Shown piece by piece: positions 13,730-56,237 of a stretch of DNA of 64,000 nucleotides. The translations under genes were made by a program, and so were the position numbers. Source of the stretch: an uncultured bacterium. Lineage in GTDB: Bacteria; Latescibacterota; MWCZ01. The first letter of the stretch is position 1; each line of letters opens with the position of its first letter. The DNA is taken from NCBI GenBank assembly GCA_964510105.1, contig CAZEAI010000003.1, forward strand, positions 31,805 to 95,804, given 5' to 3'. The notes under the pieces are model-generated. The model did not search any database. It saw nothing but the letters and a program-made list of their open reading frames with translations, and was not told the origin of the DNA.

Positions 13730-14326
13730 TCAACGGGCGGCGGGCGGTTCTTCGAGAGAATCGGTGTGCACCAGAAACGTGACGATATTCCGACCGTACG
13801 TACGCTGGTCTCGCATGGCCAGCGATACAGGGGCGATGCCACCGTCGGTACCCTGCTCGTGGTGGTACACGAGCAACCCTGTGAGTTCGAGCAGGTCCCG
13901 AGCTATCGTGTCGGCAAGCTCGTCGAGCACACCGCGACGCTCCTCCGTCCCCAGTGGAAACGGCGGATCGAAAATCACGACGTCCGCGCGTTCGCCTTCT
14001 TGCGCAATCTGCCGAACCGCGGACGCAGCATCCGTGTTCAGGATGCGGGCGCGATCGGCGACGCGGGTGCGTTCGAGATTCCGCGCGATCGTCTGCGCGC
14101 AGTCGCGGTCGCGATCCACGAACGTGCAGAACGTCGCGCCCCGGCTCAGCGCCTCGATGCCGAGCCCGCCCGTCCCCGCGTAGATATCGATCACCCGTGC
14201 GCCGATCAGGCGCGGGTCGAGTATGCTGAAGACCGACGTCTTCACCCGGTCGGTCATCGACCGCGTCGTCGCGGCGCGAACCTCGTACAGCGGCACGCTT
14301 CGGGCAGTCCCCGCGATCACTCTCAT
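13730..14326 (-). CDS. rsmD: 16S rRNA (guanine966-N2)-methyltransferase RsmD
   Basis: MRVIAGTARS...VIDIYAGTGGLGIEALSRGA...VVIFDPPF motifs typical of RsmD-type N6/N2 MTases. About 198 aa from the internal ATG. Confidence 0.75.
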   Translation of the reverse strand: MRVIAGTARSVPLYEVRAATTRSMTDRVKTSVFSILDPRLIGARVIDIYAGTGGLGIEALSRGATFCTFVDRDRDCAQTIARNLERTRVADRARILNTDAASAVRQIAQEGERADVVIFDPPFPLGTEERRGVLDELADTIARDLLELTGLLVYHHEQGTDGGIAPVSLAMRDQRTYGRNIVTFLVHTDSLEEPPAAR

Positions 14327-14569
14327 CGAACGGATGCCCTGCATATAGTCCCGAACATTCCTTGCCTGCTCCCCGACATGCTGGTATCTTCTGTGGAACC
14401 CCAATCGGTTCCGGTTATTTCCCCATCATTGAAGAATGTAGTGAGGTCGCTCGGCGGAGGCACCCGTTCCTTCGACGGTTTCTCCGCGCGTCCGCGAATC
14501 CGACCTGACCGGATGTCGGAACGGTCCACGACCGTCTCCAGCCGAAAATGCGGATAGAAGGAGTATCAC

Positions 14570-15403
14570 ATGGGTTGTACACTCTTCTGGGAAGCTCAGG
14601 AATTCAGCGGACTTATGCAGGTTCGATGCCGCGACGAACTCATCGCGCTTGCCGAATCGGCCGGCTGGGAGTATGAGGTCACCGAGGACGTTTGGAAGGG
14701 CATCGCGGTGAACCTTAACGCCCGCCCGGAGCGCGCTCGGCCGTTTCGCGCGGAGCTCAGTACGATCGGCGTCACGATGTTCCCGTTCGGCCGCGGCGAG
14801 GATGACTCGCGCCCGCGCCTGCCGTTCGTGTTCGACAACACGACCCTGAACGACCCGGATCTGCGCAACCGCCTCATCACCATCGGCCCGGCGTCGTACT
14901 GGCGCGAGTGGATGCCGCGAGTGAAGAGCCAGTATCCGATTCTCGCCGACGACCGCGAGGAGCCCGTGTTCGGCATCCGCGGCGACGGGCACATGCGCGT
15001 CCGGCGCACTGAGCTACCGGGATTTATCAAGTTCCTGAACACATTGAAGGCCACGGCGCTGCCGCTGCTCGACATCCGCACCAGCGACCGTCTGGCTCGA
15101 AAAATGATCAACGATCCGAACCAGAACCCTCTCGGTCGAGGTGGTCAGCACCGCGTAATCGATCAGGCGACGCTCGACGAACTCGCCGAGGGCCTCGGCG
15201 TGCTGTTCAACGAGTCGAAGTTCGACGACTGGAAACTTGGCCTCGAAACGGAAGACGAGATGGAGCGCGAGCAGGCGAAAGCAAACCGCGCCGCGACGAT
15301 TCCGGACAGAGGCAGGGGGCCACGCGACGGTGGACGAGACACGGGACGAGACGGCGGGCGCGGCGGAGGCCGTGGGGTCTTCGGCGGACCGCGAGGATTC
15401 TGA
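14570..15403 (+). CDS. hypothetical protein with C-terminal RGG/RG-rich low-complexity tail
   Basis: Intact 277-aa ORF preceded by AGGAG. C-terminus DRGRGPRDGGRDTGRDGGRGGGRGVFGGPRGF. It is the first gene of the operon that continues into the polyamine genes. Confidence 0.45.
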   Translation: MGCTLFWEAQEFSGLMQVRCRDELIALAESAGWEYEVTEDVWKGIAVNLNARPERARPFRAELSTIGVTMFPFGRGEDDSRPRLPFVFDNTTLNDPDLRNRLITIGPASYWREWMPRVKSQYPILADDREEPVFGIRGDGHMRVRRTELPGFIKFLNTLKATALPLLDIRTSDRLARKMINDPNQNPLGRGGQHRVIDQATLDELAEGLGVLFNESKFDDWKLGLETEDEMEREQAKANRAATIPDRGRGPRDGGRDTGRDGGRGGGRGVFGGPRGF

Positions 15404-16971: not shown

Positions 16972-17964
16972 ATGTCCGGCCCACTCTCCGAATCCACTGA
17001 ACTCGCAGGAGCGTCGTTCCATCCCATCGCACGCACCGATGTGGGGCGGCTGGTGCGCGCCGCTTCAGCCGCACAGACCTGGCTCTGGGCGGCGTACGGC
17101 CCATTCCTTGTCAGCTACGGACGTTCGCCCTCGCGCGCGGTGCTCATTGGTGAGATGGACGACGCGCTGGTCGTGCTGTTGCGGCGACGCATCCGCGGAC
17201 AGGGCCACGTCGATCTCATTGTCCCGCCGCTCGCCGCAGAGCCGCTCCCGGCTCTCACCCGCATCACCGATGCGCTCGCCGCGCACAATGGCGGTGAGCT
17301 GGAAACGCGGCTGCTCTGGGCGGACCTGCCCGCCGCCGCACTGCTGGCGGACAAGCCGGGCTGGCGCGTGACGCCGTACGAGCGCGAGTACCTGTACGAC
17401 CGCGACGCCGTGCTCGCCATGAGCGGGGGCGCGTTCCGGACCCTTCGCAAGCGCGTCAACCGGTGCGAGCGCGAAGCGTTCCCGCTCGTGCGCGACTACA
17501 CCGCCGCCGTCAGCGACGGTCGCACCGACCGCGACGCGTGCGCGGATCTGTTACGCGAGTGGCAGGACGTCCGCGAGCCTGTCGTCGAGCCGGTGTTCGA
17601 CTTCGGCTACACCATGGCCGCGTTGGACGTAGCGACGGAGATCGGCCCTCCGCACCTGACCGGGATCGTCGTCGAGGTCGACGCGCGGGTGCGGGCGTTC
17701 GCGTTCGGAGGCGTGCTGCGGGATGACGTCGCGTGCTTCTTCATCCTGAAGAGCGATCCGACGATTCACGGTCTCGCCGAGTTCGCGCGCGTGGGGCTCA
17801 TGCGACGTCTCGACGGCTGCCGGTACGTGAACGACGCCGGCGATCTCGGCCACGAGGGATTGGCGCGGCACAAGAGCGCGTTCCGCCCGGTGGGGTTCGT
17901 GCCGACGTGGAAGATGGGGTATTCCTGCGGGTGTCGCCCCGACACTCCGCAGGCTAACTCCTGA
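16972..17964 (+). CDS. DUF2156-like protein (MprF C-terminal aminoacyl-transferase-like fold), tentative
   Basis: About 330 aa. Segments (GGAFRTLRKRVNRCERE; FFILKSDPTIHGLAEF...HKSAFRP) resemble the DUF2156/LPG-synthase C-domain. Assigned from memory of family features. Confidence 0.4.
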   Translation: MSGPLSESTELAGASFHPIARTDVGRLVRAASAAQTWLWAAYGPFLVSYGRSPSRAVLIGEMDDALVVLLRRRIRGQGHVDLIVPPLAAEPLPALTRITDALAAHNGGELETRLLWADLPAAALLADKPGWRVTPYEREYLYDRDAVLAMSGGAFRTLRKRVNRCEREAFPLVRDYTAAVSDGRTDRDACADLLREWQDVREPVVEPVFDFGYTMAALDVATEIGPPHLTGIVVEVDARVRAFAFGGVLRDDVACFFILKSDPTIHGLAEFARVGLMRRLDGCRYVNDAGDLGHEGLARHKSAFRPVGFVPTWKMGYSCGCRPDTPQANS

Positions 17965-18373
17965 CGAAGAAGGCGCCAAGGGATGACACTACGACCGCTT
18001 GGGCCACCGCCAGACGAACACCGTATTCACGCATGACATCGAGAGACTGAACTGGCGCGAAGGCTTTCGACACGACGATGGCACCGACGAATAGCAAGTA
18101 TGCTAGCGACAGCACCAATGCTACCCAGAATAGGTACGAATTCACCTGCTTCCTCTGCTTCCTACGGTCTTGGAGATCTACGACCACAGCGCTTACCGTG
18201 AGGCTAAGCGTCGGCAGGATCGTCGCCAGCAACCAGTCCCACGCCTCCTCTGTTCTCTCGCCGTAGTGTCCTAGGTAGGTTCGCGTGAGTACAAGGGTCG
18301 CCAGCAGCAGGGCACCAACCAGCCAGGTTGTGACAAGGCGTTTCTCGCACTCTACTACGGGACGTTGTGCCAT
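17954..18373 (-). CDS. hypothetical small membrane protein (3-4 TM), third gene of the low-GC island operon
   Basis: ATG at 18373 (MAQRPVVE...). Hydrophobic helices TWLVGALLLATLVLT, LLATILPTLSLTVSAVVV, LFWVALVLSLAYLLFVGAIVV. Lower GC than its surroundings. Confidence 0.4.
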   Translation of the reverse strand: MAQRPVVECEKRLVTTWLVGALLLATLVLTRTYLGHYGERTEEAWDWLLATILPTLSLTVSAVVVDLQDRRKQRKQVNSYLFWVALVLSLAYLLFVGAIVVSKAFAPVQSLDVMREYGVRLAVAQAVVVSSLGAFFVRS

Positions 18374-18377
18374 CGCA

Positions 18378-19052
18378 TCACTCCATGAATGACCAGAGCC
18401 CAGCTCTCCGCAGATGGGTTCTTGCGGTGTAGTGGCTCGCAACCAACGCAGGTGTCTCGCCCGAAGGTGGCCTGCGGAAAACATAGACAAGAGCTACGCA
18501 TGCATGCTCCTCCGTGTACCTCTCGCTGGCGATAGTCCGCGGCAGTCTATTCAACCCTCCGTCAGACCATGATCCTGCCCTATCATACGACACCGGTGTT
18601 CGCTCTTGTGAGAAGGCATCCGAGGTCACGGCAAACACGAGGACACGGTAGTACCCGTTTGTCGCCGAGAAGAGTGCCCTGATATAATCCATCAGGGAGA
18701 AATCGTCATCTGACATGGGTGAGAGGTGCCATCGCTCGGGCTCGGGCTTTTTCGACGCATCCCCTCCGATTCTCTCCATTGGAGTCACAAGCGCGAATCC
18801 GCCCGGTACAATGTAGTAGTTGGCGCTGAAATACCCTGCGCCTTTCAGAGCGCCACGTAGCGCATCATCCACGTCCGACAATCGACAGTGGCTGCCGATG
18901 GAGGATCTGACGCTATCCAGCGTGACCGTTGCCACAGCGGACGCTACCGGCGGGGGCCAAGGGAATCTAGGGTATGGCCGGGCTTCGGTAGGCGAAGTAG
19001 CAGGCGGTTGGGGCTGCGCCATGCTAACATCCTCAGACACAGTATCGGGCAC
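18378..19052 (-). CDS. hypothetical protein, second gene of the low-GC island operon
   Basis: Intact 224-aa ORF 21 bp downstream of the DUF4062 gene and 5 bp upstream of the membrane-protein gene. No recognised domain. Confidence 0.4.
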   Translation of the reverse strand: MPDTVSEDVSMAQPQPPATSPTEARPYPRFPWPPPVASAVATVTLDSVRSSIGSHCRLSDVDDALRGALKGAGYFSANYYIVPGGFALVTPMERIGGDASKKPEPERWHLSPMSDDDFSLMDYIRALFSATNGYYRVLVFAVTSDAFSQERTPVSYDRAGSWSDGGLNRLPRTIASERYTEEHACVALVYVFRRPPSGETPALVASHYTARTHLRRAGLWSFME

Positions 19053-19073
19053 TTGCCCAGCAACGGGCGCAGA

Positions 19074-19838
19074 CTAGCGTGGACGGTACTGCCGACATGT
19101 CCTGAATAGCAGGACCCCACTCAGGATCGCCGCAGCAGCGACAGCGAAGAGGATTCCTGACCATCTCACTCGCCCCTCTTCGTACCACTCCCAGAACCAC
19201 ACAAGCAAGGCAGCTAGCACCGCCGCGCTCACCCAAAGCGCCGACATAGGCGCGCGCGCCCAGATGGCAAGAGCGATCGCTGCGGCGACGAGGACGGATA
19301 GAAGCGGGACGAGGACGTGTAGTAAGAGGACCGAGCGACGTGGGTCACAGACGGTCGCCCTCACCGTCCGTAGACGGCTCTGCTCCCAGTTGTGCAATGC
19401 TCGTGTAACTCGGCGCGAGAGATCGTCTGGTGTGCTGAACGCCTCACGAATCGACTCCCTGCTCACGCGGTTCCTGAAGGCACGTTGGCGGGCGCGGTAC
19501 TCGTCTGCTTCGACAAGCCCAGGTGGCATCGGGAAATCTTCGGGAGCAAGGAACATGAGGCGCGGAATACCAGCCGCGATAGCTTCATCATGTTCCCGTT
19601 CGGCATACGACGTTTCACTTCCGGCCGGGATGGCTCCGTACGTGTGGCCCAACACCCCAACGAATACGTCGCAGCCTGAGACGGCGGCATGATCGAACTC
19701 AGCAGCCCCCTGATCACGGGCACCGAAGTCCTCCATGCGTACACAGTGGTATCCGTCTATTCCCTCGATAGCAGCATAGACGGCCTCGCGGTACGCCGTG
19801 AGGTCGCGACCGGTGGAACTGAGGAAGACTGTCGTCAT
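19074..19838 (-). CDS. DUF4062 (TIR/nucleoside-deoxyribosyltransferase-clan) domain protein with three C-terminal transmembrane helices
   Basis: The N-terminus matches DUF4062 closely: TVFLSSTGRDLTAYREAVYAAIEGIDGYHCVRMEDFGARDQG...CDVFVGVLGHTYGAIPAGSETSYAEREHDEAIAAGIPRLMFL. ATG 19838 is preceded by AAGGAG at about 8 nt. The C-terminus carries three TM helices. Confidence 0.6.
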   Translation of the reverse strand: MTTVFLSSTGRDLTAYREAVYAAIEGIDGYHCVRMEDFGARDQGAAEFDHAAVSGCDVFVGVLGHTYGAIPAGSETSYAEREHDEAIAAGIPRLMFLAPEDFPMPPGLVEADEYRARQRAFRNRVSRESIREAFSTPDDLSRRVTRALHNWEQSRLRTVRATVCDPRRSVLLLHVLVPLLSVLVAAAIALAIWARAPMSALWVSAAVLAALLVWFWEWYEEGRVRWSGILFAVAAAAILSGVLLFRTCRQYRPR

Positions 19839-20002
19839 GTCCGGCTCCTTCACACATTTCCTTACCACGATTGTATCGCACGACGGATCGCGGAACAAGC
19901 CGTCACTCCACGTTCCGTCACACTTCTTTCGTATTGCCCCTCCCATCCCCCACCGTACCTTCTCTCCCCGTCCCTTCGCCACGCCTCGCACGGAGCCCGA
20001 CT

Positions 20003-21733
20003 ATGCCCGACACCCCGCGTCCCGAACACCCGCGTCCCGACCTGACACGCGACCGCTGGATCAACCTGAACGGCCGGTGGGAATTCGAACTCGACCCCGG
20101 CCTGTCAGGCGTCGCGCGCGGCCTGCCAGACGCTGCGCGTCTGGTAAGCGAGATCATCGTGCCGTTCTGCCCGGAGTCGCGGCTCAGCGGCGTGGAGAAC
20201 ACCGACTTCATGCCCGGCGTCTGGTACCGACGCACGTTCACCGTGCCGGAGGAGTGGAGCGAGATGCGTGTCATGCTGCGCTTCGAGGCGGTGGACTACC
20301 TCACGCAGGCATGGGTGAACGGGCAACACGTCGGGACGCATCGCGGCGGGTACACGCCGTTCGGATTCGACATCACGAGCGCACTCAAGCGCGGTGAGAA
20401 CGTGCTGATGGTCTTCGCGCAGGACGACACGCGGTCGCCGCTCCAGCCGTCGGGCAAGCAGTCGGAGCGGTACGAGTCGCACGGGTGCCACTACACGCGG
20501 ACGACGGGCATCTGGCAGACGGTATGGCTCGAGGCGGTGCCCGCTGCGCACGTCGAGCGGCTGCGCATCGTGCCGGTACCGGAGGCGGGCGTGATGCGGG
20601 TGGATGTCCACGCGGCGGGCGCGGCGTCGGGCGGCGAGGTGCGTCTGCACGTGCAGGCCGAGGGCGAGACGGTCGCGGACGTCACGGGGCGAATGCAGGG
20701 CGGTGTCGCGCTCATGGGATGCCATGTGCCTGACGTCCACTTGTGGACGCCGGAAGACCCGTTCCTCTACGACGTTGCGGTCACGCTCACGGGGCGAGAC
20801 GGCACGCGCGATGAAGTCCGCAGCTACGCAGGCATGCGCGACCTCGGCATCGACGGTCCCGCGCTGCTGCTCAACGGGAAGCCGAAGTTCCAGCGGCTCG
20901 TGCTCGATCAGGGCTTCTACCCCGAAGGCATCTACACCGCGCCCACCGACGACGACCTGCGCAACGACATCGAGATATCGAAGGGTCTCGGCTTCGATGG
21001 CGCGCGCCTGCACATGCGGGTGTTCGAGCGGCGCACGCTCTACTGGGCGGACAAGCTCGGATACCTCGTCTGGGACGAGTTCCCGAACTGGGGTCTCGAC
21101 TTGCGCGATCCCGCCGCGCTGGCCCGCGTTCACGAGGAATGGTCGGAGGTGCTGGAGCGCGACATGAATCACCCGTCGATCGTCGGGTGGTGCCCGTTCA
21201 ACGAGACGGCGACTAGTCAGGACCCCGACACGCTCCGCGCGATCTACCGCGCGACGAAGCTCGCCGATCCGACGCGTCCCTGCATCGATACGTCGGGCTA
21301 CGTGCACACGGAGTCGACCGACGTTTACGACTGCCACTGTTACGAGCAGGACGTGCAGAAATTCGCCGAGCGCTTCGAGGCCATGTCCGACGGCGGCGAC
21401 GCATGGTACAACTTCCCCGAGAACGACGTGCCGTGGCAGGGCCAGCCGTATTTCGTCAGCGAGTACGGCGGCATCTGGTGGAACCCCGGGCAGGCGGGCG
21501 ATGCAGACTGGGGATACGGCGAGCGCCCGAGGTCGGCGCAGGAGTTCATCGAGCGTTACCGGGGCCTCTCCGAGGCGTTGCTGCGGCATCCGAAGATGTG
21601 CGGCTTCTGCTACACGCAGCTCACCGACGTGGAGCAGGAGGTAAACGGCCTGTATACGTACGACCGGAAGCCCAAGTTCGACCCGGCGATCATTCGGGAG
21701 ATCAACCAGCAACCGGCGGCGATCGAGGCGTAA
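20003..21733 (+). CDS. glycoside hydrolase family 2 (third GH2 in the window)
   Basis: WINLNGRWEF N-terminus, GH2 core (GGYTPFGFDIT, MRDLGIDGPALLLNGKP, FNETATS). The internal ATG at 20003 (MPDTPRPEH) is chosen over the 19871 extension. Confidence 0.75.
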   Translation: MPDTPRPEHPRPDLTRDRWINLNGRWEFELDPGLSGVARGLPDAARLVSEIIVPFCPESRLSGVENTDFMPGVWYRRTFTVPEEWSEMRVMLRFEAVDYLTQAWVNGQHVGTHRGGYTPFGFDITSALKRGENVLMVFAQDDTRSPLQPSGKQSERYESHGCHYTRTTGIWQTVWLEAVPAAHVERLRIVPVPEAGVMRVDVHAAGAASGGEVRLHVQAEGETVADVTGRMQGGVALMGCHVPDVHLWTPEDPFLYDVAVTLTGRDGTRDEVRSYAGMRDLGIDGPALLLNGKPKFQRLVLDQGFYPEGIYTAPTDDDLRNDIEISKGLGFDGARLHMRVFERRTLYWADKLGYLVWDEFPNWGLDLRDPAALARVHEEWSEVLERDMNHPSIVGWCPFNETATSQDPDTLRAIYRATKLADPTRPCIDTSGYVHTESTDVYDCHCYEQDVQKFAERFEAMSDGGDAWYNFPENDVPWQGQPYFVSEYGGIWWNPGQAGDADWGYGERPRSAQEFIERYRGLSEALLRHPKMCGFCYTQLTDVEQEVNGLYTYDRKPKFDPAIIREINQQPAAIEA

Positions 21734-33102: not shown

Positions 33103-34620
33103 GTGGAGTATCAGCAGCAACTCATCGACCAGCGAATCGCAAAGCTCGAACGGCTTCGCGAACTCGGCGTCGAGCCATATCCGTACCGGTATGAGCCGAC
33201 GCATATCAGCCGCGATATTGTGGAGAACGCCGAATCTCTCGACGGCGGGCAGGTATGCGTCGCCGGGCGCCTGCGATCGATTCGGGGGAAGGGGAAGACC
33301 GCCTTCGCCCACCTCCAGGATGCCGAGGGACAGATTCAGCTCTACGTCCGCCGAGATATCGTGGGAGACGACGTCTACGCCGCGTGGAAACAGCTTGACA
33401 TCGGCGATATCGTCGGCGTCGAGGGACCGGTCTTCAGCACCCGGACGGGCGAGGTCACGGTCCAGGCGGATCGGCTCACTATCCTGACGAAGAGCATCCG
33501 CCCGCTGCCGGTGGTGAAGGAACGCACCGTCGACGGCGAGCGCGAGACCTACAACGACATCGCGGAGAATACCGAGCTACGCTACCGGCATCGCGCGGTG
33601 GACCTCACGGTGAATCCGAGCGTGCGAGAGGTATTCCGCAGCAGGGCGCGAGTCATGCGCGCGCTACGGGATGTGCTCCATGATCGCGGCTTCATCGAGG
33701 TCGAAACGCCGACGCTCCAGCCGCTCTACGGCGGGGCGAACGCGCGCCCGTTCAAGACGCACCACAACGCGCTCGATCTCGACCTGTACCTCCGCATCAG
33801 CCCGGAGCTGTACCTGAAGCGCCTCATCGTCGGCGGGCTCGACCGCGTGTATGACCTGTCGAAGAACTTCCGCAACGAGGGGATCGACCGCACGCACAAT
33901 CCCGAGTTCACCATGCTGGAAGTGTATCAGGCGTATGCCGACTACACCGACATGATGGCGCTCACCGAGGATCTCTACGCGGCGGCGGCACAAGCGGTAC
34001 TCGGCGGCCTGAGCATCACGTACCAGGGCACGGAACTCGACTTGACGCCCCCGTGGGAACGGCTCACCATGGCCGATGCCATCAAGCGACACACCGGTAT
34101 CGACGTGGATGCCATCGACGAGGACGAGCTACGGCGGCACGTCGCCGAGCGCGACCCCGATATCGCGGACGACCTGCCGCCCGGCCTGCTCATCGCGGAG
34201 CTGTTCGAGCAGCGCGTGGAGCAGCACCTCACCGGTCCGGTGTTCATCACCGAGCACCCGCTGGAGACGACGCCCCTCTGCAAAGCGTCGAGGACCACGC
34301 CGGGACGGATCGAGCGCTTCGAGCCGTATATCCTCGGCTGGGAGATCGGCAACGCGTATTCCGAGCTTAACGACCCGGTCCGGCAGCGCGAGCTGCTGAC
34401 GGATCAGGCGGCGGATCGCGATGTGGATGGCGAGGTGCCGCCGCTCGACGAGGACTTCCTGCAAGCCATCGAAACGGGCATGCCGCCGACCGGCGGTCTC
34501 GGGCTGGGCGTCGACCGTCTCGTGATGTTCCTGACGGACCAGCCTTCGATCCGCGACGTCATAGCGTTCCCCACGCTCAGACCCGAACGCGCGGACACCG
34601 GCGCTCCGGACGAGAAGTAG
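33103..34620 (+). CDS. lysS: lysine--tRNA ligase (class II)
   Basis: Class II aaRS motifs, OB-fold anticodon-binding N-domain (CVAGRLRSIRGKGKTAFAHLQD), catalytic core (FRNEGIDRTHNPEFTMLEVYQAY; motif 3 region GLGLGVDRLVMFL). The start is set to the in-frame GTG 33103 with GAGGG upstream because the annotated ATG 32995 lies inside the repeat array. Confidence 0.8.
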   Translation: MEYQQQLIDQRIAKLERLRELGVEPYPYRYEPTHISRDIVENAESLDGGQVCVAGRLRSIRGKGKTAFAHLQDAEGQIQLYVRRDIVGDDVYAAWKQLDIGDIVGVEGPVFSTRTGEVTVQADRLTILTKSIRPLPVVKERTVDGERETYNDIAENTELRYRHRAVDLTVNPSVREVFRSRARVMRALRDVLHDRGFIEVETPTLQPLYGGANARPFKTHHNALDLDLYLRISPELYLKRLIVGGLDRVYDLSKNFRNEGIDRTHNPEFTMLEVYQAYADYTDMMALTEDLYAAAAQAVLGGLSITYQGTELDLTPPWERLTMADAIKRHTGIDVDAIDEDELRRHVAERDPDIADDLPPGLLIAELFEQRVEQHLTGPVFITEHPLETTPLCKASRTTPGRIERFEPYILGWEIGNAYSELNDPVRQRELLTDQAADRDVDGEVPPLDEDFLQAIETGMPPTGGLGLGVDRLVMFLTDQPSIRDVIAFPTLRPERADTGAPDEK

Positions 34621-34772
34621 CACTTCGGATCGCGCCTATCCGCCGTATTGGCAGAGCGACGCGACATATCAGCATGACAACGCGCATGGCACCGGTATTG
34701 CACCAGCGAACGAGGCGTTCCGCGCACCGGATACCTTGCAGCGCAACACACCACGCAAGATGAGAGGCCCGC

Positions 34773-36290
34773 ATGGCACTGACACCTCAGGACGCATATC
34801 AGAAGCTCATCGAGCGGTCGAAGCAGGTTGGTCTCCTGGCCACGGTCGGAAGCCTGCTCCACTGGGATATGGAAACCGGCATGCCCGACGGCGGCTCGCA
34901 GCACCGCGGTGAGCAGCTCTCGCTGCTCTCGGGGATGGCGCATGAGCAGTTCGTCGACCCCGCGATGGGCGAATGGCTTGGCGCAGTGGAGGGCAGCGAC
35001 GTCGTCGCCGATCCCGCTTCCGACGCGGCGGTGAACGTCCGCGAATTGCGGCGCGAGTACGACCGCGAGGTGAAGGTGCCGAAAAGGCTGGTCGAGGAAC
35101 TCGCCCGCGTGACCTCGGAGGCGCACGTCGTCTGGCGGGATGCACGCGAGGAGAGCGACTTCCCCGCCTTCGCGCCGATACTGCAGCGCATTGTCGAACT
35201 CACCCGCGAGCAGGCCGACGCCATCGCCAGCGGCACGACGCGCTATGAAACGCTCATGGACGCCTATGAGCCCGGCATGACGACCTCGGAAATGCAGGGC
35301 GTCTTCGACAGTCTCATCAACGACGCGAAGCCGCTTCTCGACGCGGTGATGGCTTCCGGCAAGAAGCCTGACAAGACGATTCTCACGCGGTACTACGAGC
35401 CGGATGGCCAGGAAGCGCTGACGGGTATCATCGCGCAACTTGTCGGGTTCGACCTGCAAAGCGGCGCCATCGCGGAGAGCACCCACCCATTCACCACGGG
35501 GATCGGCGCCGGAGACACGCGTTTCACCACGCGGTACTATCCGAACGAGCTGAACGTGTCGGTCTTCGGCACGCTGCACGAGGCGGGCCACGGGCTCTAC
35601 GACCAGGGGCTGCTCGTCGAACAGCACGGTACGCCCATGGGCGAATCGGTTTCGCTGGGCATACACGAGTCGCAGTCTCGCATGTGGGAGAACCTCGTCG
35701 GCAGGAGCCGGGCGTTCTGGAAGTTCGCGCTCCCGATAGCTCGCGGCGTCTTCCCGCAGAAGCTGGCGGGCGTGTCGCTGGACGACTTCGTATGGGCGAT
35801 CAACGACGTGGAGCCATCGTTCATCCGCGTCGAGGCCGACGAAGCGACGTATAACATGCACATCATGCTTCGCTTCGAAATCGAGCAGAAGATCATCGCA
35901 GGCGATCTCGACGTAGCCGATATCCCGTCCGCATGGAACGAGCGATTCACCGAGCTTCTCGGCATCACGCCGCCGGACGACGCGCACGGCTGTCTGCAGG
36001 ACGTCCACTGGTCGGGCGGGATGTTCGGCTACTTCCCGACGTACACCCTGGGCAATCTGTACAGCGCGCAGTTCTTCGAGAAGGCCCGTGAGGACCTGGG
36101 CGACCTCGACGAGATGTTCGCGCGCGGTGAGTTCGCGCCGTTACTCGGCTGGCTGCGCGAGAACATCCACGTGCACGGGATGAAGTATCGGGCGAGCGAG
36201 TTGGTGAAGCGCGTCACCGGTAAGCCGCTCAGCCACGAACCGCTGGTGCGTTACATGAAGGCGAAGTTTGGGCCGCTCTACGGCATCTGA
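34773..36290 (+). CDS. M32 family carboxypeptidase (Taq-type metallocarboxypeptidase)
   Basis: HPFTTG motif, zinc site HEAGHGLYDQG (HExxH), IRVEADE and GYFPTY conserved segments of M32. Confidence 0.8.
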   Translation: MALTPQDAYQKLIERSKQVGLLATVGSLLHWDMETGMPDGGSQHRGEQLSLLSGMAHEQFVDPAMGEWLGAVEGSDVVADPASDAAVNVRELRREYDREVKVPKRLVEELARVTSEAHVVWRDAREESDFPAFAPILQRIVELTREQADAIASGTTRYETLMDAYEPGMTTSEMQGVFDSLINDAKPLLDAVMASGKKPDKTILTRYYEPDGQEALTGIIAQLVGFDLQSGAIAESTHPFTTGIGAGDTRFTTRYYPNELNVSVFGTLHEAGHGLYDQGLLVEQHGTPMGESVSLGIHESQSRMWENLVGRSRAFWKFALPIARGVFPQKLAGVSLDDFVWAINDVEPSFIRVEADEATYNMHIMLRFEIEQKIIAGDLDVADIPSAWNERFTELLGITPPDDAHGCLQDVHWSGGMFGYFPTYTLGNLYSAQFFEKAREDLGDLDEMFARGEFAPLLGWLRENIHVHGMKYRASELVKRVTGKPLSHEPLVRYMKAKFGPLYGI

Positions 36291-45700: not shown

Positions 45701-47015
45701 CGAAACGCCCGAGCCCATCCCGCTGCACGTGCGAGGGGGAATGCCGGAGGGCGAATCGCTTGATATCGACCTCAGCGGCAACGAGGTCGTTGAGCGCTTC
45801 ACGATCGCAGGCCCGTGGGAGCACCCGCTTTTCGTCGGCAGCTCCACGCTCAGCAACGGGTTCTTCACGTATCCGCTTGAGGGCGCGTCCGACTCCGACA
45901 CGTTGGATGCAGATGGCGGCAGCTTTGTCGAGAACGTCAACTGGCAGGTGGACCTCGTATCCGGACCCAATCTGACGTACGAGACACGATCCACGCAGAC
46001 GTTGTGGCGCGGCCTGATGCGGGACCCGATAGAACTTCTCGGCTCGATGGCCGCTGAGATGGAGGCGCGTCTCAGCGAGGGGGGTAGAGTCGAACTTCGC
46101 GGCATCTACGCCGACAGCAGCCTGAGCATCATCACGGACAACCTGGTAAGCGATCAGGGACGCATGTCGGTACTCGACATCGACTTCCGCCCGGACGGCC
46201 CCCTCGTGCTGGACTGGGATACACGCGCCGATCCGGAGCCGCTTATCAGAGGTCGCGGCGTCGCGGAGGTCGAGATCGACCAGGATGCCTATGGCGAGCC
46301 GGATGCCGGCTCGGGAAGCCTCAGCCGCGAACGCCAGTACCAGAAAATCTACGCCCGCCTCGTGAGTGTAGATCCGCTGACCGGCGTCGTTCGGGAGGGC
46401 GGCAGGCTGGGAGAGCTACGCGTCGAGCTTGACACGGATGCGAGTCGTCAGGGACCCGTCGGCGAGCGCCAACAGCTCGCGGTCTTGCGCATGCTCGGGT
46501 ACCACGCTCCGGTACTCGGCGAGCAGGACTACGACCCGGCGGAGTCGCAGAGCATCGATCCGAAGGACATTGTGACGGCGGGCTATCGGACGCTCCTGAG
46601 ACGGAGCGAGCAGCAGGCGTGGAGGTCGCTGTTCTACCCGTTCCGGCGACAGATACGCAAACTCACGCGCATCGACGTTGTGGAAGTCGAACCATCGTTC
46701 GTGCTAAATCTGCTCGATCGCGATACATACAGCCGGCAGGAACTCACTCCCGAGCAGGCGTACCTGACCTATCTGCAGGGCACGAACTGGACCGTGGGCG
46801 AGTACGTGTGGGGACGATTCCTCTTGTCGTACCATGGCGAACTCGAGCTGACGAGCATCGCACGACCCACTATCGGCGCACGTCACGAGATCGGCGTCGA
46901 GTGGGCCATCAGCCCGCAGACTCGACTCGAACTCAGCCGCGATATCGATGTACCCATCGGCGAGCCAGATACTCGGATCGGCCTGTCGCATCGGTTCGCA
47001 TTCCAGTCATACTAG
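42798..47015 (+). CDS. tamB: translocation-and-assembly-module TamB-like protein (AsmA/DUF490 family), 1405 aa
   Basis: N-terminal signal anchor (LTPTLIVVGVLTIAVGLWAA). Very long beta-rich repetitive body. C-terminal DUF490-like end (...RIGLSHRFAFQSY). Confidence 0.6.
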   Translation: MAQPVRHRHRWLTPTLIVVGVLTIAVGLWAARTVYLLAENLREIVSSEFSARTGGTVRVADLSWNWRYLEFTSVEADAPMLPGAVHLPTVRVHVRLRAAMARDLLAAVDRIELASPTVVVDRSIVERAKQWRDQPPVDDVGPIPRMEIVVDDGTVLWREEGTDSTVAVATGISGWVSVSDDVVLNVSGSLLSGEVNAAARGVIPLNGGRPEVELSAVHVDLRRFDLAAVGSAEGRADLSVSLNEEVTARLALTGAEFITRDDIRIGPITTEVAIDGNAASWTQTDLPIGGLILSTVGCVTWGDEPFIDAQARWSGDVDRLGNLVSDRLAELRGNVRGRIDVSGPLKSPSIVFDAMSDSLRAGRLILSRIGLRGHTEPMADGQDSPQLTLDTFGATFGNDRIDGTGSATLSPLDVALRLRPARIRLASHESLADAEITGSVVVSGEARLRPSGSTASLRISDVDARISGRSPPLRSITATYDSSGMLSLAGHGPGLVLAAIVDEDSLLGARLTGSLDISDYSLPLGDPPAGARGALAFSADASGLQLGGDVILQPHNRDAFPVSVQVESRFSEPGSTTVRLATTSLPYSVLRLDANAVLTLENGSWSVQGWAWRGALQFGGRIGGARDFAALIRVHRAPVEELSGVIRMDKFMTAGTVSGRLRIESTPTRGLSGSGDFTISDMTMKQVDSLQASASINITPAEVSWKSGPVTRNGRTMAFTSGSYAIRNRVASIDIWGPPDGRIEHGLALGGVSLNASGDALWSVGIVDTTGDVHPARLDIEVLATDGELLTIPFDTTQIRLNGNTHWLDLEYAYLSKHRFYTAAADVGRVPVAPPDGGEFDIPIHVRDEPGNDVLWLLTRLIDQGVDGNGSGQAYIRVAGPSSEVVIGEGWVQIDDGTLRWPGGIWPEWQQLTGRAAIAPGERFIRLENLSASVGTGFVTVSNTPASGMGATALTIPAIGASLGTLQIETPEPIPLHVRGGMPEGESLDIDLSGNEVVERFTIAGPWEHPLFVGSSTLSNGFFTYPLEGASDSDTLDADGGSFVENVNWQVDLVSGPNLTYETRSTQTLWRGLMRDPIELLGSMAAEMEARLSEGGRVELRGIYADSSLSIITDNLVSDQGRMSVLDIDFRPDGPLVLDWDTRADPEPLIRGRGVAEVEIDQDAYGEPDAGSGSLSRERQYQKIYARLVSVDPLTGVVREGGRLGELRVELDTDASRQGPVGERQQLAVLRMLGYHAPVLGEQDYDPAESQSIDPKDIVTAGYRTLLRRSEQQAWRSLFYPFRRQIRKLTRIDVVEVEPSFVLNLLDRDTYSRQELTPEQAYLTYLQGTNWTVGEYVWGRFLLSYHGELELTSIARPTIGARHEIGVEWAISPQTRLELSRDIDVPIGEPDTRIGLSHRFAFQSY

Positions 47016-47040
47016 AGCCCGTCGCACGGAGAAGGCCACC

Positions 47041-48084
47041 ATGGAATGGACACCCAACGATCCCGTCTCGCCTCTGGGTCGGGCACTCGCCGACCGGACT
47101 CAGTCGCACCGGTTCGACGCGACGACGCCGGACGAGGCCGCCGCGTGGAGACGCAGCCTGCGACCGGTCGTTGAGCACCTGCTCAGCCTGGACAGGATCG
47201 CCCCGTGCCCACTCAGCGCGCGAACCGTCCGCACGGAGGATTGCGGCTCCTACACCGTCGAACACCTGCTGTACGACAGCGAGCCGGGCGTGACGGTCCC
47301 CGCCGCTCTCCTGGTGCCGAAGGAGCTTTCCACGCCCGCGGCAGCGATGCTCTGCCCGCCCGGTCATGGTCGCGGCCTGAGCGATCAACTCGACAGCGAT
47401 CCCGATGGGCGCGAAGGCGTCCGCGCGCTGAACTACGACTACTCCCGCCAGTTCGCTGAACGGGGGTACGTCGTTCTCACGTGCGAGATACGTGGCTTCG
47501 GCTCGCTGGCGGACCTGGAGATCGCCGAACGAGGCATGGTCGGCAACTGTGAGCATCTCTTCCGTTACGAGCTCATGCTCGGCCGCGTCCTTGCCGGAAT
47601 TCGCACGTGGGACCTGATGCGAGGCATCGACTACCTGGTCACCCGCCCGGAAGTCGACGCGTCGCGAATCGGGTGCGCCGGACTGTCCATGGGTGGTGAG
47701 CTGTCGATGCTCGTCTCCGCGCTGGACGAGCGCGTGCGCGTCGCGATGATCAGTGGATTCCTCTGCACGTACCACGGCCTGCAGATCGAGAAGACGAACT
47801 GCGTCTGCTACACCATTCCACACATCTGGGACGTTTGCGATATGCCGGATATCGCTGGGCTCATCGCGCCACGGCCGCTCGTCATCGAAACGGGTATTCG
47901 GGACGGCTGCTTCCCTTGGAACGCAGTGAACGAAGCATACGGAAGGCTTGGGGATATCTACGCCGCGTACGGCGCGAGCGATATGCTCGTGCGCGATATC
48001 CACGAGGCCGGGCATCGCTTCAGCGGCGTCGTGGCATTCGACTGGTTCGACCGGTGGCTGCGTCCGGCGCAGGTGGGTTCCTGA
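47041..48084 (+). CDS. alpha/beta hydrolase, acetyl-xylan-esterase/cephalosporin-C-deacetylase-like (AXE1/CE7-like)
   Basis: GxSxG nucleophile elbow (GLSMGG), His near the C-terminus (HEAGHRF), fold-typical spacing. Start at ATG 47041 just after the tamB stop. Confidence 0.55.
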   Translation: MEWTPNDPVSPLGRALADRTQSHRFDATTPDEAAAWRRSLRPVVEHLLSLDRIAPCPLSARTVRTEDCGSYTVEHLLYDSEPGVTVPAALLVPKELSTPAAAMLCPPGHGRGLSDQLDSDPDGREGVRALNYDYSRQFAERGYVVLTCEIRGFGSLADLEIAERGMVGNCEHLFRYELMLGRVLAGIRTWDLMRGIDYLVTRPEVDASRIGCAGLSMGGELSMLVSALDERVRVAMISGFLCTYHGLQIEKTNCVCYTIPHIWDVCDMPDIAGLIAPRPLVIETGIRDGCFPWNAVNEAYGRLGDIYAAYGASDMLVRDIHEAGHRFSGVVAFDWFDRWLRPAQVGS

Positions 48085-48178
48085 CACCGAAAGCCGCCCC
48101 GGCTGTGCCACCCGTACATGAAAGAGCGGCGCACCCGGACTGGAGTGCGCCGCTCGCGAACATGCTGTGAACAGTTCC

Positions 48179-49981
48179 TCAGGCCTTGTTGAGCCGCTCC
48201 TCAAGCAGATCGACCTGCTTCACCAGCCGCTCGGGAAGGCGCTCGCCAAACCGAGCAAGATGCTCTCGTATCCCAGGGATCTCCTGTTTCCATGCCTCGA
48301 CATCGACGGCCGTCAGCTCGCCGATATCGTCCTCGGAGATGTCCAGTCCGGTAAGGTCCAGGGCGCCGTCGTCCGGCATGGATCCGAGTGGCGTCTCCTT
48401 CGCACCGGCAACACCGTCCACGCGCTCGCACATCCACTTCAGGACGCGAATGTTCTCGCCAAAACCCGGCCACAGCCACCGGCCGTCCGCATCCTTGCGG
48501 AACCAGTTGACGCGGAACATCCGCGGGCCTTTGTCGCCGAGGCGAACTCCCATCTCCAGCCAGTGACCGAAGTAGTCGCCCATATTGTATCCGCAGAACG
48601 GGAGCATTGCGAACGGATCGTACCGCAGGTTGCCCACGGACCCGATGTTCGCCGCTGTCGTCTCCGAGGCCGTCGTCGCCGCGATGCATATGCCGCGATC
48701 CCAGTCGGTGGCTTCAACAACGAGCGGAGCGACCGTCGTGCGCCGCCCGCCAAACACCATGATGTCGATCGGGACGCCTTGCGGGTCTTCCCAGTCCGGG
48801 GAGATGACCGGACACTGGCTCGCGGGAGTCGTGAAGCGAGCGTTCGGGTGCGCCGCCGGTACATCGCTCTCCGGCGTCCAGTCATTTCCCTTCCAGTCGA
48901 TAGCGTGCTCGGGCGGGTCGCCGTCCATGCCTTCCCACCAGATGTCGCCGTCGTCCGTGAGCGCGCAGTTGGTGAATATCGAGTTCTCGCGAACGGTATC
49001 CATCGCCATCGGGTTTGTGTCGTAGGACGTGCCGGGCGCGACGCCGAAGAATCCCGACTCCGGGTTGATCGCGTACAGCTTGCCGTCCTCGCGGACGTGC
49101 ATCCACGCAATGTCGTCGCCAATGCACTCGCACTTCCAGCCGGGAATCGTCGGCTGCATCATGGCGAGATTGGTCTTACCGCACGCCGACGGAAACGCAG
49201 CCGCAACGTGGTACTGCCGCCCCTCGGGGTTGGTAAGGCGGAGGATCAGCATGTGTTCGGCAAGCCAACCCTCACGGCGCGCGGCATTCGATGCGATCCG
49301 AAGCGCGAGACACTTCTTTCCGAGTAGCGCGTTGCCGCCGTACCCGGAGCCATACGACCAGATGAGATTCTCGTCGGGGAAGTGGCTGATGTACTTGCTC
49401 TCGATTGGAGCGCACGGCCAGACGGCATCCTGCTCACCTTCCTGCAGGGGCGCGCCGACCGAGTGCAGACATGGGATGTACTCTCCGTCGGTGCCGAGCC
49501 GCTCAAGGGCGCTGCCACCGACGCGCGCCATGATATGCATGTTACAGACCACGTACGGACTATCCGTGATCTCCACTCCCACACGGGACATGTCGGAGTC
49601 GACAGGACCCATCACAAAGGGGATCACGTACATGGTCCGGCCCGCCATGCATCCATCGTACAAGCCGGTCATGATGCCCTTCAGCTCGTCGGGATCGATC
49701 CAGTTGTTTGTCGGACCAGCTTCCTCGGGCTTCGCCGTGCTGATGTACGTCCGGGCCTCGACGCGCGCCACGTCCGACGGATCGGATCTGAACAAGTAGC
49801 TGCCGGGGCGCTTGTCGAGAGGAATCGCCATACCGGTCCCAACCATGCGATCCATCATATCCGCGTACTCCACCGTGGAGCCATCGCACCAATAGACCTC
49901 GTTGGGCGTACACATTTGTTCCACTTCGTCGACCCATGCCGCGAGTCGCGTGTGATTCACATTTCGTCGATCAATGCCCAT
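48179..49981 (-). CDS. pckG: phosphoenolpyruvate carboxykinase (GTP)
   Basis: PEPCK-GTP motifs: kinase-1a (AFPSACGKTN), P-loop-like region, FGVAPGTS, WEDPQGVPI, FGGRRTT. 600 aa. Confidence 0.9.
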   Translation of the reverse strand: MGIDRRNVNHTRLAAWVDEVEQMCTPNEVYWCDGSTVEYADMMDRMVGTGMAIPLDKRPGSYLFRSDPSDVARVEARTYISTAKPEEAGPTNNWIDPDELKGIMTGLYDGCMAGRTMYVIPFVMGPVDSDMSRVGVEITDSPYVVCNMHIMARVGGSALERLGTDGEYIPCLHSVGAPLQEGEQDAVWPCAPIESKYISHFPDENLIWSYGSGYGGNALLGKKCLALRIASNAARREGWLAEHMLILRLTNPEGRQYHVAAAFPSACGKTNLAMMQPTIPGWKCECIGDDIAWMHVREDGKLYAINPESGFFGVAPGTSYDTNPMAMDTVRENSIFTNCALTDDGDIWWEGMDGDPPEHAIDWKGNDWTPESDVPAAHPNARFTTPASQCPVISPDWEDPQGVPIDIMVFGGRRTTVAPLVVEATDWDRGICIAATTASETTAANIGSVGNLRYDPFAMLPFCGYNMGDYFGHWLEMGVRLGDKGPRMFRVNWFRKDADGRWLWPGFGENIRVLKWMCERVDGVAGAKETPLGSMPDDGALDLTGLDISEDDIGELTAVDVEAWKQEIPGIREHLARFGERLPERLVKQVDLLEERLNKA

Positions 49982-50324
49982 ACCGTTTGGCCCTTCTCTC
50001 TATGCCCGCTCAAGACGCCCTTCGAGCATGACGATGGATTCGCGGCACGCGTCCGGAAAGTTGATAGTGTCTCTTATACACTAAGTCGCACGCCGAGAAC
50101 ATAACACTTCCGAGCGCCCATTGAGAACTCCCCCGCGCTCGAAATCTGTATCTCTACCGATTGTAGCCCGCTGAAACGGCTCCGCTGACCCGGCGTGGAA
50201 ATGGTATGCTGCCCATACGGCCCCGTTGGAGGTGAGACCAAGGCCAAGAGAAGATACCGCCGCGAGCATGCCCGTCAAGCGCGAGTAACGAACCTCCCGC
50301 TTGACGGCGGCATCGGCGACGGAT

Positions 50325-50347
50325 ATCTTCATACATCGATGAACAAT
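50325..50347. promoter_or_regulatory. candidate Rrf2-type operator (imperfect palindrome) immediately upstream of the Rrf2 regulator gene
   Basis: TTCATACATCGATGAACAA contains the CATCGATG core palindrome flanked by TTCAT/ATGAA arms. It sits about 10 bp before the start codon in an AT-richer divergent promoter region. Confidence 0.35.
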
Positions 50348-50357
50348 TCACGAAGGG

Positions 50358-50771
50358 GTGCCAATGCTGTCGCAGACCTCGCTGCACGCGCTCCGCGCGC
50401 TCGCGCACATGGTCGAACACCGCGACGAGGAGCCGATCCTGTCCAGAGAGATCGGCGAATCGACGGACATACCGGCGAACTACCTGTCGAAGATCATGCA
50501 CGCGCTGGGCGCGGCGGGCGTACTCACCGCGGTGCGAGGCAAGAACGGGGGGTACCGATTCGCTCAGGACCCCTCGCGGACGCGGATCGTGGATATCGTG
50601 AACCTCTTCCAGAACACGGAGCAGTTCCGCGTGTGCCTGCTGGGAAACCAACGGTGCTCCGACGACAAGCCGTGCCTCATACACGAGCGTTGGAAGCCAG
50701 CGTCGGAGGCCATGTTCAAGTTCCTCGATGAGACGAGTCTGGCGGATCTGCGCGCGCCCGATATACCGTAA
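50358..50771 (+). CDS. Rrf2-family transcriptional regulator (NsrR/IscR-like, three-Cys cluster ligands)
   Basis: N-terminal wHTH (SLHALRALAHMVEH...REIGESTDIPANYLSKIMHALGAAGVLTAVRGKNGGYRF) and C-terminal CxxxxxxCxxxxxC ligand set (CLLGNQRCSDDKPC). Confidence 0.75.
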   Translation: MPMLSQTSLHALRALAHMVEHRDEEPILSREIGESTDIPANYLSKIMHALGAAGVLTAVRGKNGGYRFAQDPSRTRIVDIVNLFQNTEQFRVCLLGNQRCSDDKPCLIHERWKPASEAMFKFLDETSLADLRAPDIP

Positions 50772-50831
50772 CACTGCGAACTACGCTTACGCACACACGA
50801 CCACATCCAGCCCACTCGGGAGTTACCAAGC

Positions 50832-55451: not shown

Positions 55452-56237
55452 ATGAAACGCGAGACCCTTCTGCGGTTCACGCTCCTGGTGGCGCTGTCAC
55501 TCGCCGCCGGTGGATGCTACACGGTTCTCACTCACCCGCAGACTACGCCGGAACAGCACGTCACTGACACCGGTGACGTGCTCGCGCCGAACGACTGCTC
55601 GGGATGCCATTCGGGCAGCGAACTCTGGTCATACCACCACGACGCCTACTGGCTCGCCCCGAGCCATCATAGCAGCCTGTCCGGCCCGAGCCATCGCAAC
55701 AGCCTGTCGGGCTACTACGCCTACCGCTACGACCATCTCTTCGTCGGACATCGCTGGTACAATCGCCGTTACTACGATCGCTGGGCATGGTATTACTACC
55801 AGCCGTGGTGGATGTATGACCGCCATCCGCAGCGAGGAGACCATTACGGTCGGCCTGCCGAACAACGACCCACTAGGCATCTCGGCGACCGTCGCGATGG
55901 GTACGACCGTCAGGAGCCGCGCAGCGAGTTCACGCCATATATCGGACCGGGCACCGGCCCCATGACATTCTCGTCTCCGCTTCAGCCCGCGGCGTCGACC
56001 GGCTCGACGGGGCGAGCGCGAACCACTGGCGGCGGCGCTGAAGTGAACGCTGACACGTCGAACGAGCGCAAACTCGGAGATCGGCGGGCCGATCCTCCGG
56101 CTGCTGCGCCCACAACAACTCAGCCGTCGTCGTCCGGTGGCAGCAGGCCAGCGCAGGACGGCGCCAGCAGCGACTCCAACGACGACGGTGACGATGAGCA
56201 ACCTCAGCGGCGACGGCTAGGGGATCGACGCCGCTAG
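55452..56237 (+). CDS. lipoprotein with a single CxxCH motif and an extreme Trp/Tyr/Arg/His-rich low-complexity region
   Basis: Lipobox LAAGGC. NDCSGCHSG (CxxCH). RWYNRRYYDRWAWYYYQPWWMYDRHPQRGDHYGRP. C-terminal Ser/Asp-rich tail. The ORF-track N-extension from 54891 runs inside mutS2 and is rejected. Confidence 0.45.
   Translation: MKRETLLRFTLLVALSLAAGGCYTVLTHPQTTPEQHVTDTGDVLAPNDCSGCHSGSELWSYHHDAYWLAPSHHSSLSGPSHRNSLSGYYAYRYDHLFVGHRWYNRRYYDRWAWYYYQPWWMYDRHPQRGDHYGRPAEQRPTRHLGDRRDGYDRQEPRSEFTPYIGPGTGPMTFSSPLQPAASTGSTGRARTTGGGAEVNADTSNERKLGDRRADPPAAAPTTTQPSSSGGSRPAQDGASSDSNDDGDDEQPQRRRLGDRRR

Follow-up and report, generated by a model that had tools for sequence, protein, structure and literature searches.

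What might three adjacent genes be doing together when the first looks like an immune effector, the other two match nothing annotated, and all three differ in composition from the DNA around them? The question is raised by a 64,000-nucleotide stretch of contig CAZEAI010000003.1 from an uncultured bacterium of the Latescibacterota (hereafter the window, meaning the whole stretch that was analysed), in which three tightly packed minus-strand open reading frames (ORFs), here called A, B and C, fill positions 17954-19838. A first-pass annotation had singled out this run as an undescribed defence or abortive-infection-like module, an interpretation that is partly supported by our results. A is a DUF4062 protein, a member of a family of TIR-like NAD+-hydrolysing enzymes (NADases), on a transmembrane (TM) anchor; B and C form a pair that is found in many phyla and is recurrently linked to TIR, TIR+TM and EAD11 modules; and all three genes lie on a cassette of 2.06 kb that was inserted horizontally. 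We tentatively propose that this cassette is an envelope-coupled abortive-infection module, with a membrane-bound DUF4062 NADase as its putative output and the B-C pair at the envelope, a reading to which we give somewhat less than an even chance.

A DUF4062 protein with a membrane anchor

A scores 61.6 bits with the Pfam profile PF13271 (DUF4062; cut-off 24.7, E=8.3e-17) in a match that spans positions 2-82 of the 82 in the profile, while the Pfam TIR/TIR_2 profiles (PF13676/PF01582) give no match in A at E<=1. Its AlphaFold2 (AF2) model, with a predicted local distance difference test score (pLDDT) of 86 overall and above 90 over the core, consists of beta-alpha repeats and a long helix at residues 137-163, and Foldseek matches it to nucleoside deoxyribosyltransferase (NDT), the SARM1 TIR, plant TIRs and TIR-STING at E ~1e-3. 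The first-pass annotation had described the lead gene as a TIR/NDT-clan DUF4062 domain joined to a membrane anchor, and both parts of that description hold, the anchor being three predicted C-terminal TM helices (Table 1). An entry identical to protein A is present in NCBI/ENA; one exact look-up (as P0092) gave no record.

Experiments have shown DUF4062 proteins to be TIR-like NADases that deplete NAD+ and abort infection (10.64898/2026.05.01.722283; 10.64898/2026.06.25.731849). In Swarozyc, whose catalytic residue is E97, the phage portal activates the enzyme through a C-terminal auxiliary (AUX) domain (10.64898/2026.05.01.722283), and Evangelion (Eva01-04) has the motifs F11, E87-Y88 and Q/W/E together with a co-evolving AUX region (10.64898/2026.06.25.731849). 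These characterised systems are single genes encoding a core and a C-terminal AUX (10.64898/2026.05.01.722283; 10.64898/2026.06.25.731849), and the DUF4062 proteins named NIR are reported to be single-gene anti-phage NADases as well (10.64898/2026.09.04.749371). A aligns over residues 4-149 with the Swarozyc protein KpSwz (PDB 10wc_A; 15-C, E97A; phmmer E=3.2e-6), at only 25-30% identity, and its E82 falls on the mutated catalytic position E97A (chain index 84). Among 42 homologs, conservation of E80 and of E82 reaches 90% or more, and F5, S7 and S8 are also invariant or nearly so; VFLSS of A aligns with VFVSS of KpSwz, the N-terminal aromatic strand motif; and the helix behind the core carries HNWEQ, in which N150 is nearly invariant among homologs and W151 may, judged by position only, correspond to W162 of the Eva01 Q/W/E motif. 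A is a member of the DUF4062 superfamily that keeps the catalytic Glu, with a predicted NADase activity, by analogy with the characterised enzymes, and an unusual membrane architecture. The proposal of a defence module is strengthened to the extent that the DUF4062 family consists of anti-phage NADases and A retains the catalytic Glu; the lead family itself can no longer be called undescribed.

What A has in common with Swarozyc, Evangelion and, reportedly, NIR is a TIR-like DUF4062 core at the N-terminus with a long stalk helix behind it and then a variable C-terminal region, a catalytic Glu within S-x-T/A-E-x-E, the aromatic motif VF[LV]SS near the N-terminus, and a patchy, horizontally moved distribution. 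The differences lie further along the protein and around the gene. Where KpSwz has a soluble AUX sensor that binds the phage portal, A has three TM helices, which make up its last 90 residues, and no soluble C-terminal domain; Swarozyc and Evangelion are single genes, whereas A is tightly linked to two more; and the window locus, unlike those systems, lies outside any defence island or plasmid. Because the defining soluble AUX region is absent, we do not file A as a Swarozyc or Evangelion orthologue. None of its 46 closest homologs has a TM C-terminus, the nearest ones ending instead in STAND P-loops, TIR_2, FGE-sulfatase or a recurrent unannotated beta-rich domain, and such swapping of C-termini is a pattern typical of immune effectors. 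Neither the Swarozyc nor the Evangelion paper mentions a transmembrane DUF4062 architecture, and the TM region of A shows no homology to the N-termini of B homologs or to any ORF of the B loci examined below. A membrane-anchored DUF4062 is a new architecture in a known family.

Some 20 DUF4062 homologs (P0103, P0108-P0116, P0120-P0129) have in common a C-terminal domain of ~140 aa with the motif LLFPFVTNQxGFDTGIAISN...GFQGYLIVEC, which appears to be a recurrent AUX module without a Pfam family.

The B-C pair and its immune-type partners

The partner genes had been noted as lacking recognisable domains, and they do: B and C are unmatched in Pfam, PADLOC and NCBIfam, B has no relative in the PDB, and a comparison of 59 B homologs and 37 C homologs with NCBIfam and Pfam matched accessory domains only. 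The family of B is large. A word-indexed search recovered 91 homologs at 31-46% identity, and a B profile run against 1.84 billion proteins recovered 3,428 cluster representatives (50% identity) at E<=1e-3 and 2,140 at 1e-30. Behind the FPWPPP motif with which it starts (Table 1), the domain extends for ~185 aa, in which E93, R107, R136 and Y190 are invariant and W108, W162 and H213 nearly so. Window B keeps all 11 family-invariant residues as well as the near-invariant ones, and its AF2 model has a pLDDT of 89. The associations described below offer a first functional handle on this family of ~3,400 clusters, which has no annotation, Pfam model or solved relative.

Most B homologs have a signal peptide or lipobox at the N-terminus, and two apparent exceptions are truncated gene calls; judged from these N-termini, the B family is normally an exported lipoprotein. 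The domains found N-terminal to the FPWPPP domain are of extracytoplasmic types (SH3_3, LysM, TPR, CarboxypepD_reg, MORN, CsgG/FlgO-like and DUF4384), and in ~14 Bacteroidota loci the place is taken by an HExxH peptidase domain that is homologous to an adjacent M48+TPR protein. These M48+TPR neighbours of B-C loci resemble BepA in architecture. The N-terminal domain of BamC compares poorly with B: identity is 12% with only ~98 of 190 residues aligned, Foldseek returned nothing, BamC has neither the FPWPPP motif nor the E/R/R/Y residues that are invariant in the B family, and no Bam genes lie nearby. Tandem B genes in the order B-B-C occur in L013, L017, L019, L023 and L036 (Moduliflexus, Ulvibacter and Deferrimicrobium loci), where paralogous B sensors or adaptors may share one membrane partner.

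To see in what company B occurs, GTDB representatives were scanned with an FPWPPP search pattern, which gave at least 217 loci in many phyla; 80 of these were fetched, and counts out of 80 refer to them. In 61 of the 80, the next gene downstream of B on the same strand encodes a C homolog. No further neighbour family recurs in more than ~10, and almost every genome has the pair in surroundings of its own. The window conforms to this arrangement, with an FPWPPP protein followed 4 nt later on the same strand by a 4-TM partner. DUF4062 or an A homolog was found at none of the 80 loci. The conserved unit is the B-C pair, and the three-gene operon that had been proposed as the functional unit does not hold up as such: the triple is lineage-specific. 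By the positive-inside rule, the N-terminus of C, its loop 2 (DLQDRRKQRKQ in the window) and its C-terminus are cytoplasmic, and the best-conserved motifs, GxYG...AWxW and QPF...SNLWLGPxQG, form two outward, predicted periplasmic loops. Because these conserved motifs face outward and B is predicted to be exported, we infer physical contact between B and C. At one Phaeodactylibacter locus (L047:6610-7203) B is followed by an alternative membrane partner, a 197-aa protein with ~4-5 TM helices and a C-terminal coiled coil that matches nothing in Pfam or PADLOC.

The B-C pair is recurrently linked to TIR, TIR+TM and EAD11. At 10 loci from beta-, alpha- and gamma-proteobacteria, C is replaced behind B by a protein of ~215 aa with an N-terminal TIR_2 domain (E=5e-13 and 9e-15) and two C-terminal TM helices. 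At one locus, in Ulvibacter antarcticus, a C-like 4-TM protein is itself fused to TIR_2 (E=1.7e-19), and at 12 Saprospiraceae/Lewinellaceae loci C carries a C-terminal EAD11 domain (PF19964; 43.8 bits against a cut-off of 26 in L045). Altogether TIR or EAD11 is linked to B in 23 of the 80 loci, and the window, with DUF4062 on its own 3-TM anchor, adds a fourth arrangement. PADLOC, run on ten related proteins, matched only their TIR parts (TIR/ThsB models). Window C, at 139 aa, has no C-terminal extension and no EAD. EADs were defined as adaptor domains of NTP-dependent conflict systems, and TIR and EAD11 modules are otherwise confined to such systems (PMC7159879, PMC8195603). These links of B-C to TIR+TM, C-TIR, C-EAD11 and secreted HExxH domains strengthen the conflict-system reading of the first-pass annotation, with an anatomy other than the one proposed.

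The EAD-coupled systems and the two-gene EACC1 system (PMC7159879, PMC8195603) are comparable to B-C in combining a constant membrane component with variable immune modules, and their repertoire of TIR, EAD and peptidase parts overlaps with that of the B-C loci. They differ in that their caspase, vWA-MoxR, STAND and GTPase cores are not in the cassette neighbourhood, and EACC1, which has a single TM helix, is related to neither B nor C. We did not find the B-C pair described in either paper, and we came upon no description of a link between the B family and TIR or EAD modules. No second EAD11 protein lies within 6 kb of the Saprospiraceae/Lewinellaceae loci, so the cognate partner must sit elsewhere in the genome. 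These loci (L042, L044, L045, L049, L053, L057, L061, L065, L068, L071, L072 and L078) encode, in this order, a signal peptide, an HExxH (M48-like)-B fusion and C-EAD11, accompanied by M48+TPR paralogs, of which there are one or two. Another TIR-related protein, of 298 aa (L066:8908-9804), lies ~1.6 kb downstream of a beta-proteobacterial pair of B and TIR-2TM.

A proposed envelope-coupled module and its alternatives

How might such parts work together? In the abortive-infection reading that we tentatively prefer, B would sit on C, on the outward side of the inner membrane, and would perceive or relay something that happens at the envelope, for instance adsorption of a phage, injection of its DNA or damage to the wall. 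B-C would act as a membrane-spanning relay with the TIR, DUF4062 or EAD part as its cytoplasmic end, and in the window the membrane partner would hand the signal to A, at its DUF4062 domain on the cytoplasmic side. A might then oligomerise and hydrolyse NAD+, with growth arrest or abortive infection as the result, on the precedent of Swarozyc and Evangelion. We infer both the direction of signalling and the phage trigger. Most TIR-based bacterial defences, and the known DUF4062 ones, rely on soluble sensor domains that detect phage components within the cell; this locus and the 23 loci with TIR or EAD11 point to the coupling of an NAD-destroying effector to the envelope, the site of first phage contact. 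Nature also supplies a set of architecture variants for exploring that coupling: B+C, B+TIR-2TM, C-TIR, C-EAD11, peptidase-B and DUF4062-3TM|B.

Among known membrane-anchored or partnered TIR effectors (Thoeris ThsB/ThsA, CBASS/Pycsar), TM helices accompany a cytoplasmic TIR-type domain that processes NAD, a combination that is predicted here too. The cyclase, SAVED, SLOG, STING or ThsA-type partners of those systems are absent from the window locus, and an exported lipoprotein domain as a partner, which the B family would provide, has no counterpart in them. A literature search on TIR-TM systems returned nothing relevant.

Several observations weigh against an envelope-coupled immune module. 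The A-B-C triple has been seen only in metagenomic contigs of the same species. Window B, if made separately from its own Shine-Dalgarno sequence and ATG, would be cytoplasmic, in another compartment than its homologs, and window C departs from the SNLWLGPxQG motif of its last periplasmic loop, having lost the near-invariant S117, N, W and GP. About 45 of the 80 B-C loci have no immune-type domain and lie mostly among ordinary metabolic and envelope genes, not in defence islands; the flanks of the cassette itself are housekeeping genes (BpsA_C, AdoMet_dc, LPG_synthase_C, GH2 and PriA); and B, C, C-EAD11 and peptidase-B all find no match in PADLOC. Lastly, by the logic of EADs (PMC7159879), C-EAD11 with peptidase-B could equally be the recruited effector of a cytoplasmic sensor and not a sensor.

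One might suppose that A works alone, as a self-sufficient single-gene DUF4062 defence protein whose TM helices are its own sensor or localiser, with B-C as an independent co-traveller. The characterised DUF4062 systems are indeed single genes, DUF4062 stands beside B in 0 of 80 loci, and in most loci B-C stands alone. Such independence is harder to square with the tight spacing of the three genes (51 and 4 nt), with an anomalous composition common to all of them, and with the lack of a soluble sensor domain in A. Moreover, TIR+TM partners stand beside B in 10 loci and one C-TIR fusion exists; these being independent associations, a coincidental third one between B and a TIR-like protein with TM helices is unlikely. 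We regard a solitary A as improbable, if still worth keeping in view.

The boundary between A and B invites a bolder idea. The TAG of A lies directly behind its third TM helix and is the only stop before the FPWPPP domain of B, which continues in the same frame (...ILSGVLLFRTCRQYRPR*SAPVAGQVPDTVSEDVSMAQPQPP...FPWPPP). Window B starts without a signal peptide, a lipobox or a TM anchor, since only 29 (from the ORF start) or 19 (from the ATG) non-hydrophobic residues precede FPWPPP, and it is the only family member examined without a possible signal peptide. An assembly error at the TAG is ruled out by an independent metagenome assembly (L081) with the identical junction and 1 nt difference in ~1,590, and reassignment of TAG by its use as the stop of 17 of the 45 window ORFs. 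With a cytoplasmic NADase domain and three TM helices, the C-terminus of A should face outward, and a read-through product would therefore put B where its homologs sit. Three candidate explanations, between which we are undecided, can be set side by side: read-through, a relocated cytoplasmic B, and early decay.

Read-through would fit a wider scheme in which B and its membrane partner form an unrecognised, phylum-spanning trans-envelope sensing module for TIR-type enzymes, with the window copy made as one DUF4062-3TM-B polypeptide, the NADase inside and B outside by virtue of the odd number of TM helices. Its logic would recall a Toll-like receptor (an analogy only, with no claim of homology): an extracytoplasmic ligand-binding domain, a passage through the membrane and a cytoplasmic TIR-type domain. 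The likeness becomes literal only if the junction is read through, and Toll-like receptors have a leucine-rich-repeat ectodomain and a TIR that acts as a scaffold, whereas the window has no leucine-rich repeats, a predicted NADase and, as annotated, separate polypeptides. Multi-TM regions fused to B do exist in other proteins, for example P0011. Against read-through, an in-frame placement has a one in three chance, B has its own Shine-Dalgarno sequence and ATG, the tail of A is Arg-rich and TAG is an ordinary stop here; and among 289 family proteins there is no direct fusion of B to DUF4062 or TIR, nor was an uninterrupted A-B fusion found. We consider the scheme doubtful.

The same junction might instead be the scar of decay: a former DUF4062-3TM-B fusion split by a nonsense mutation, or a B that lost its signal peptide on insertion, leaving B mislocalised, C drifting and the module non-functional. 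A and B in frame across one TAG, a B uniquely without a signal peptide, a C whose last motif is missing S117, N, W and GP, and an arrangement confined to one species would all follow. Set against them are three intact ORFs, each with a Shine-Dalgarno sequence, a B with every invariant and near-invariant residue in place, an A that keeps F5, E80 and E82 and yields a high-confidence model, an in-frame placement that arises by chance one time in three, and the uninterrupted fusion being found nowhere. A decayed module seems distinctly unlikely to us.

That B-C is an envelope housekeeping or stress module (perhaps for outer-membrane or cell-wall quality control), with TIR and EAD11 as occasional recruits and a cassette that is not immune at all, would suit M48+TPR proteins of BepA architecture as the only recurrent neighbours, accessory LysM and SH3_3 domains that bind peptidoglycan, and neighbourhoods that are mostly housekeeping; it fares poorly with a context that differs in almost every genome, with a window pair on a low-GC inserted island absent from relatives, and with TIR or EAD11 at 23 of 80 loci, and we think it has little chance of being right. 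If it were right, the repeated recruitment of TIR would still need explaining.

The inserted cassette and its surroundings

The first-pass annotation had taken the run for a horizontally acquired island of ~2 kb with lower GC content, and both its composition and its distribution among relatives bear this out. GC over 17954-19990 (2,037 bp) is 59.45%, against a mean of 64.5% (standard deviation (sd) 1.8) over all 2-kb windows, and is about the minimum of the whole 64 kb; uniform GC is not what was found. GC at third codon positions (GC3) is 0.66, 0.63 and 0.66 in A, B and C, against a mean of 0.768 (sd 0.064) over 43 long window ORFs and 0.85 and 0.88 in the two flanking genes. The tetranucleotide L1 distance of the island to the window average, 0.341, exceeds that of every sliding window (mean 0.210, sd 0.025).

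Relatives of the insertion site were sought through protein homologs of the flanking 330-aa LPG_synthase_C-like protein, followed by inspection of their contigs; a metagenome scan with the same protein found no relatives. In two of them (60% and 64% identity) the order is BpsA_C, AdoMet_dc, LPG_synthase_C, GH2 (576 aa) and PriA, with LPG_synthase_C and GH2 only ~90 bp apart and no A-B-C, and one of the two runs on into a RodZ-like gene and Maf. Because the flanking genes are adjacent in these relatives with nothing between them, the cassette is an insertion. The closest relative (L087, 85% identity) has another minus-strand gene at the cassette position (L087:3025-4623), encoding more than 532 aa with a C-terminal TPR_12 and cut by the contig end, and two more distant relatives have other neighbours and likewise no A-B-C. 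The cassette is thus absent from all five relatives inspected, which is not the picture of core genes in conserved synteny. The LPG_synthase_C/GH2 junction looks like a variable spot, and may be a recurrent integration hotspot in the lineage. The flanks are housekeeping genes and PADLOC finds nothing in the cassette, so that a location in a defence island, which was to be looked for, was not found.

The island showed neither an integrase nor a tRNA, nor a clear target duplication. Two copies of a 13-nt imperfect direct repeat (repeat family D6; 12/13 identical) sit almost exactly at the ends of the low-GC island, and the empty site of L088 has no obvious single copy; the repeat may be an insertion remnant or a chance match. 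A target-site duplication was rejected, a 12/13 repeat being indistinguishable from chance and not evident in the empty site.

Table 1. Coordinates of the cassette genes, their main features and the edges of the island (positions in the window)
Feature	Position	Strand	Description and basis
Gene A	19074..19838	-	254 aa from ATG; DUF4062 (TIR-like NADase family) with C-terminal 3-TM anchor; ORF call, Pfam, AF2
DUF4062 core	19581..19829	-	Residues 4-86 by Pfam; fold reaches ~residue 135
Glu82 codon	19593..19595	-	Predicted catalytic residue (motif SYAEREH); alignment to KpSwz
Three predicted TM helices of A	19089..19343	-	Residues 166-193, 198-220, 226-250; hydropathy scan and AF2 secondary structure coincide
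TAG stop of A	19074..19076	-	Same frame as B (both ORF ends 0 mod 3); sole stop between third TM helix of A and FPWPPP domain
Gene B	18378..19022	-	214 aa from ATG; uncharacterised FPWPPP-domain family; copy without signal peptide
FPWPPP motif, start of B domain	18948..18965	-	Alignment columns F30 P31 W32 P33 P34 P35 invariant or near-invariant
Gene C	17954..18373	-	139 aa, 4-TM; conserved partner of B
Divergent intergenic region A/GH2	19839..20002	.	Presumed cassette promoter region
13-nt imperfect direct repeat, left copy	17938..17950	+	CCCGACAC(T/C)CCGC; within 3' end of 330-aa gene
13-nt imperfect direct repeat, right copy	20006..20018	+	Within 5' end of GH2

The ORF calls confirm a tight minus-strand run of three genes divergent from the GH2 gene at 20003, from which A is separated by 164 bp. 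Of the two gaps that had been given as 21 bp and 5 bp, the first is right if counted from the stop of A to the GTG at 19052 with which the open frame of B starts (224 aa), and the second, from the TGA of B to the ATG of C, is 4 nt. From the TAG of A to the ATG of B, which has a Shine-Dalgarno sequence, the distance is 51 nt. That sequence is GAGGA, ahead of the ATG at 19022; A has GAAGGAG 7 nt ahead of its ATG, and C has GGAG upstream. At its 3' end C shares 11 nt with the convergent 330-aa gene. A scan for consensus sigma-70 promoters found none on the minus strand upstream of A, and a terminator scan was likewise empty there.

Low GC3 (0.61-0.68 against a mean of 0.77) also occurs elsewhere in the window, in ORFs at 50154-50774, 55629-56201, 46933-48204, 34404-36008 and 13766-14557, none of which has a Pfam match; these may be further acquired or fast-evolving genes. 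A 277-aa ORF at 14570-15403, with no Pfam match and an Arg/Gly-rich tail (GRGPRDGGRDTGRDGGRGGGRGVFGGPRGF), extends into the region annotated as the start of the BpsA-like gene, and gene starts around it may need revision.

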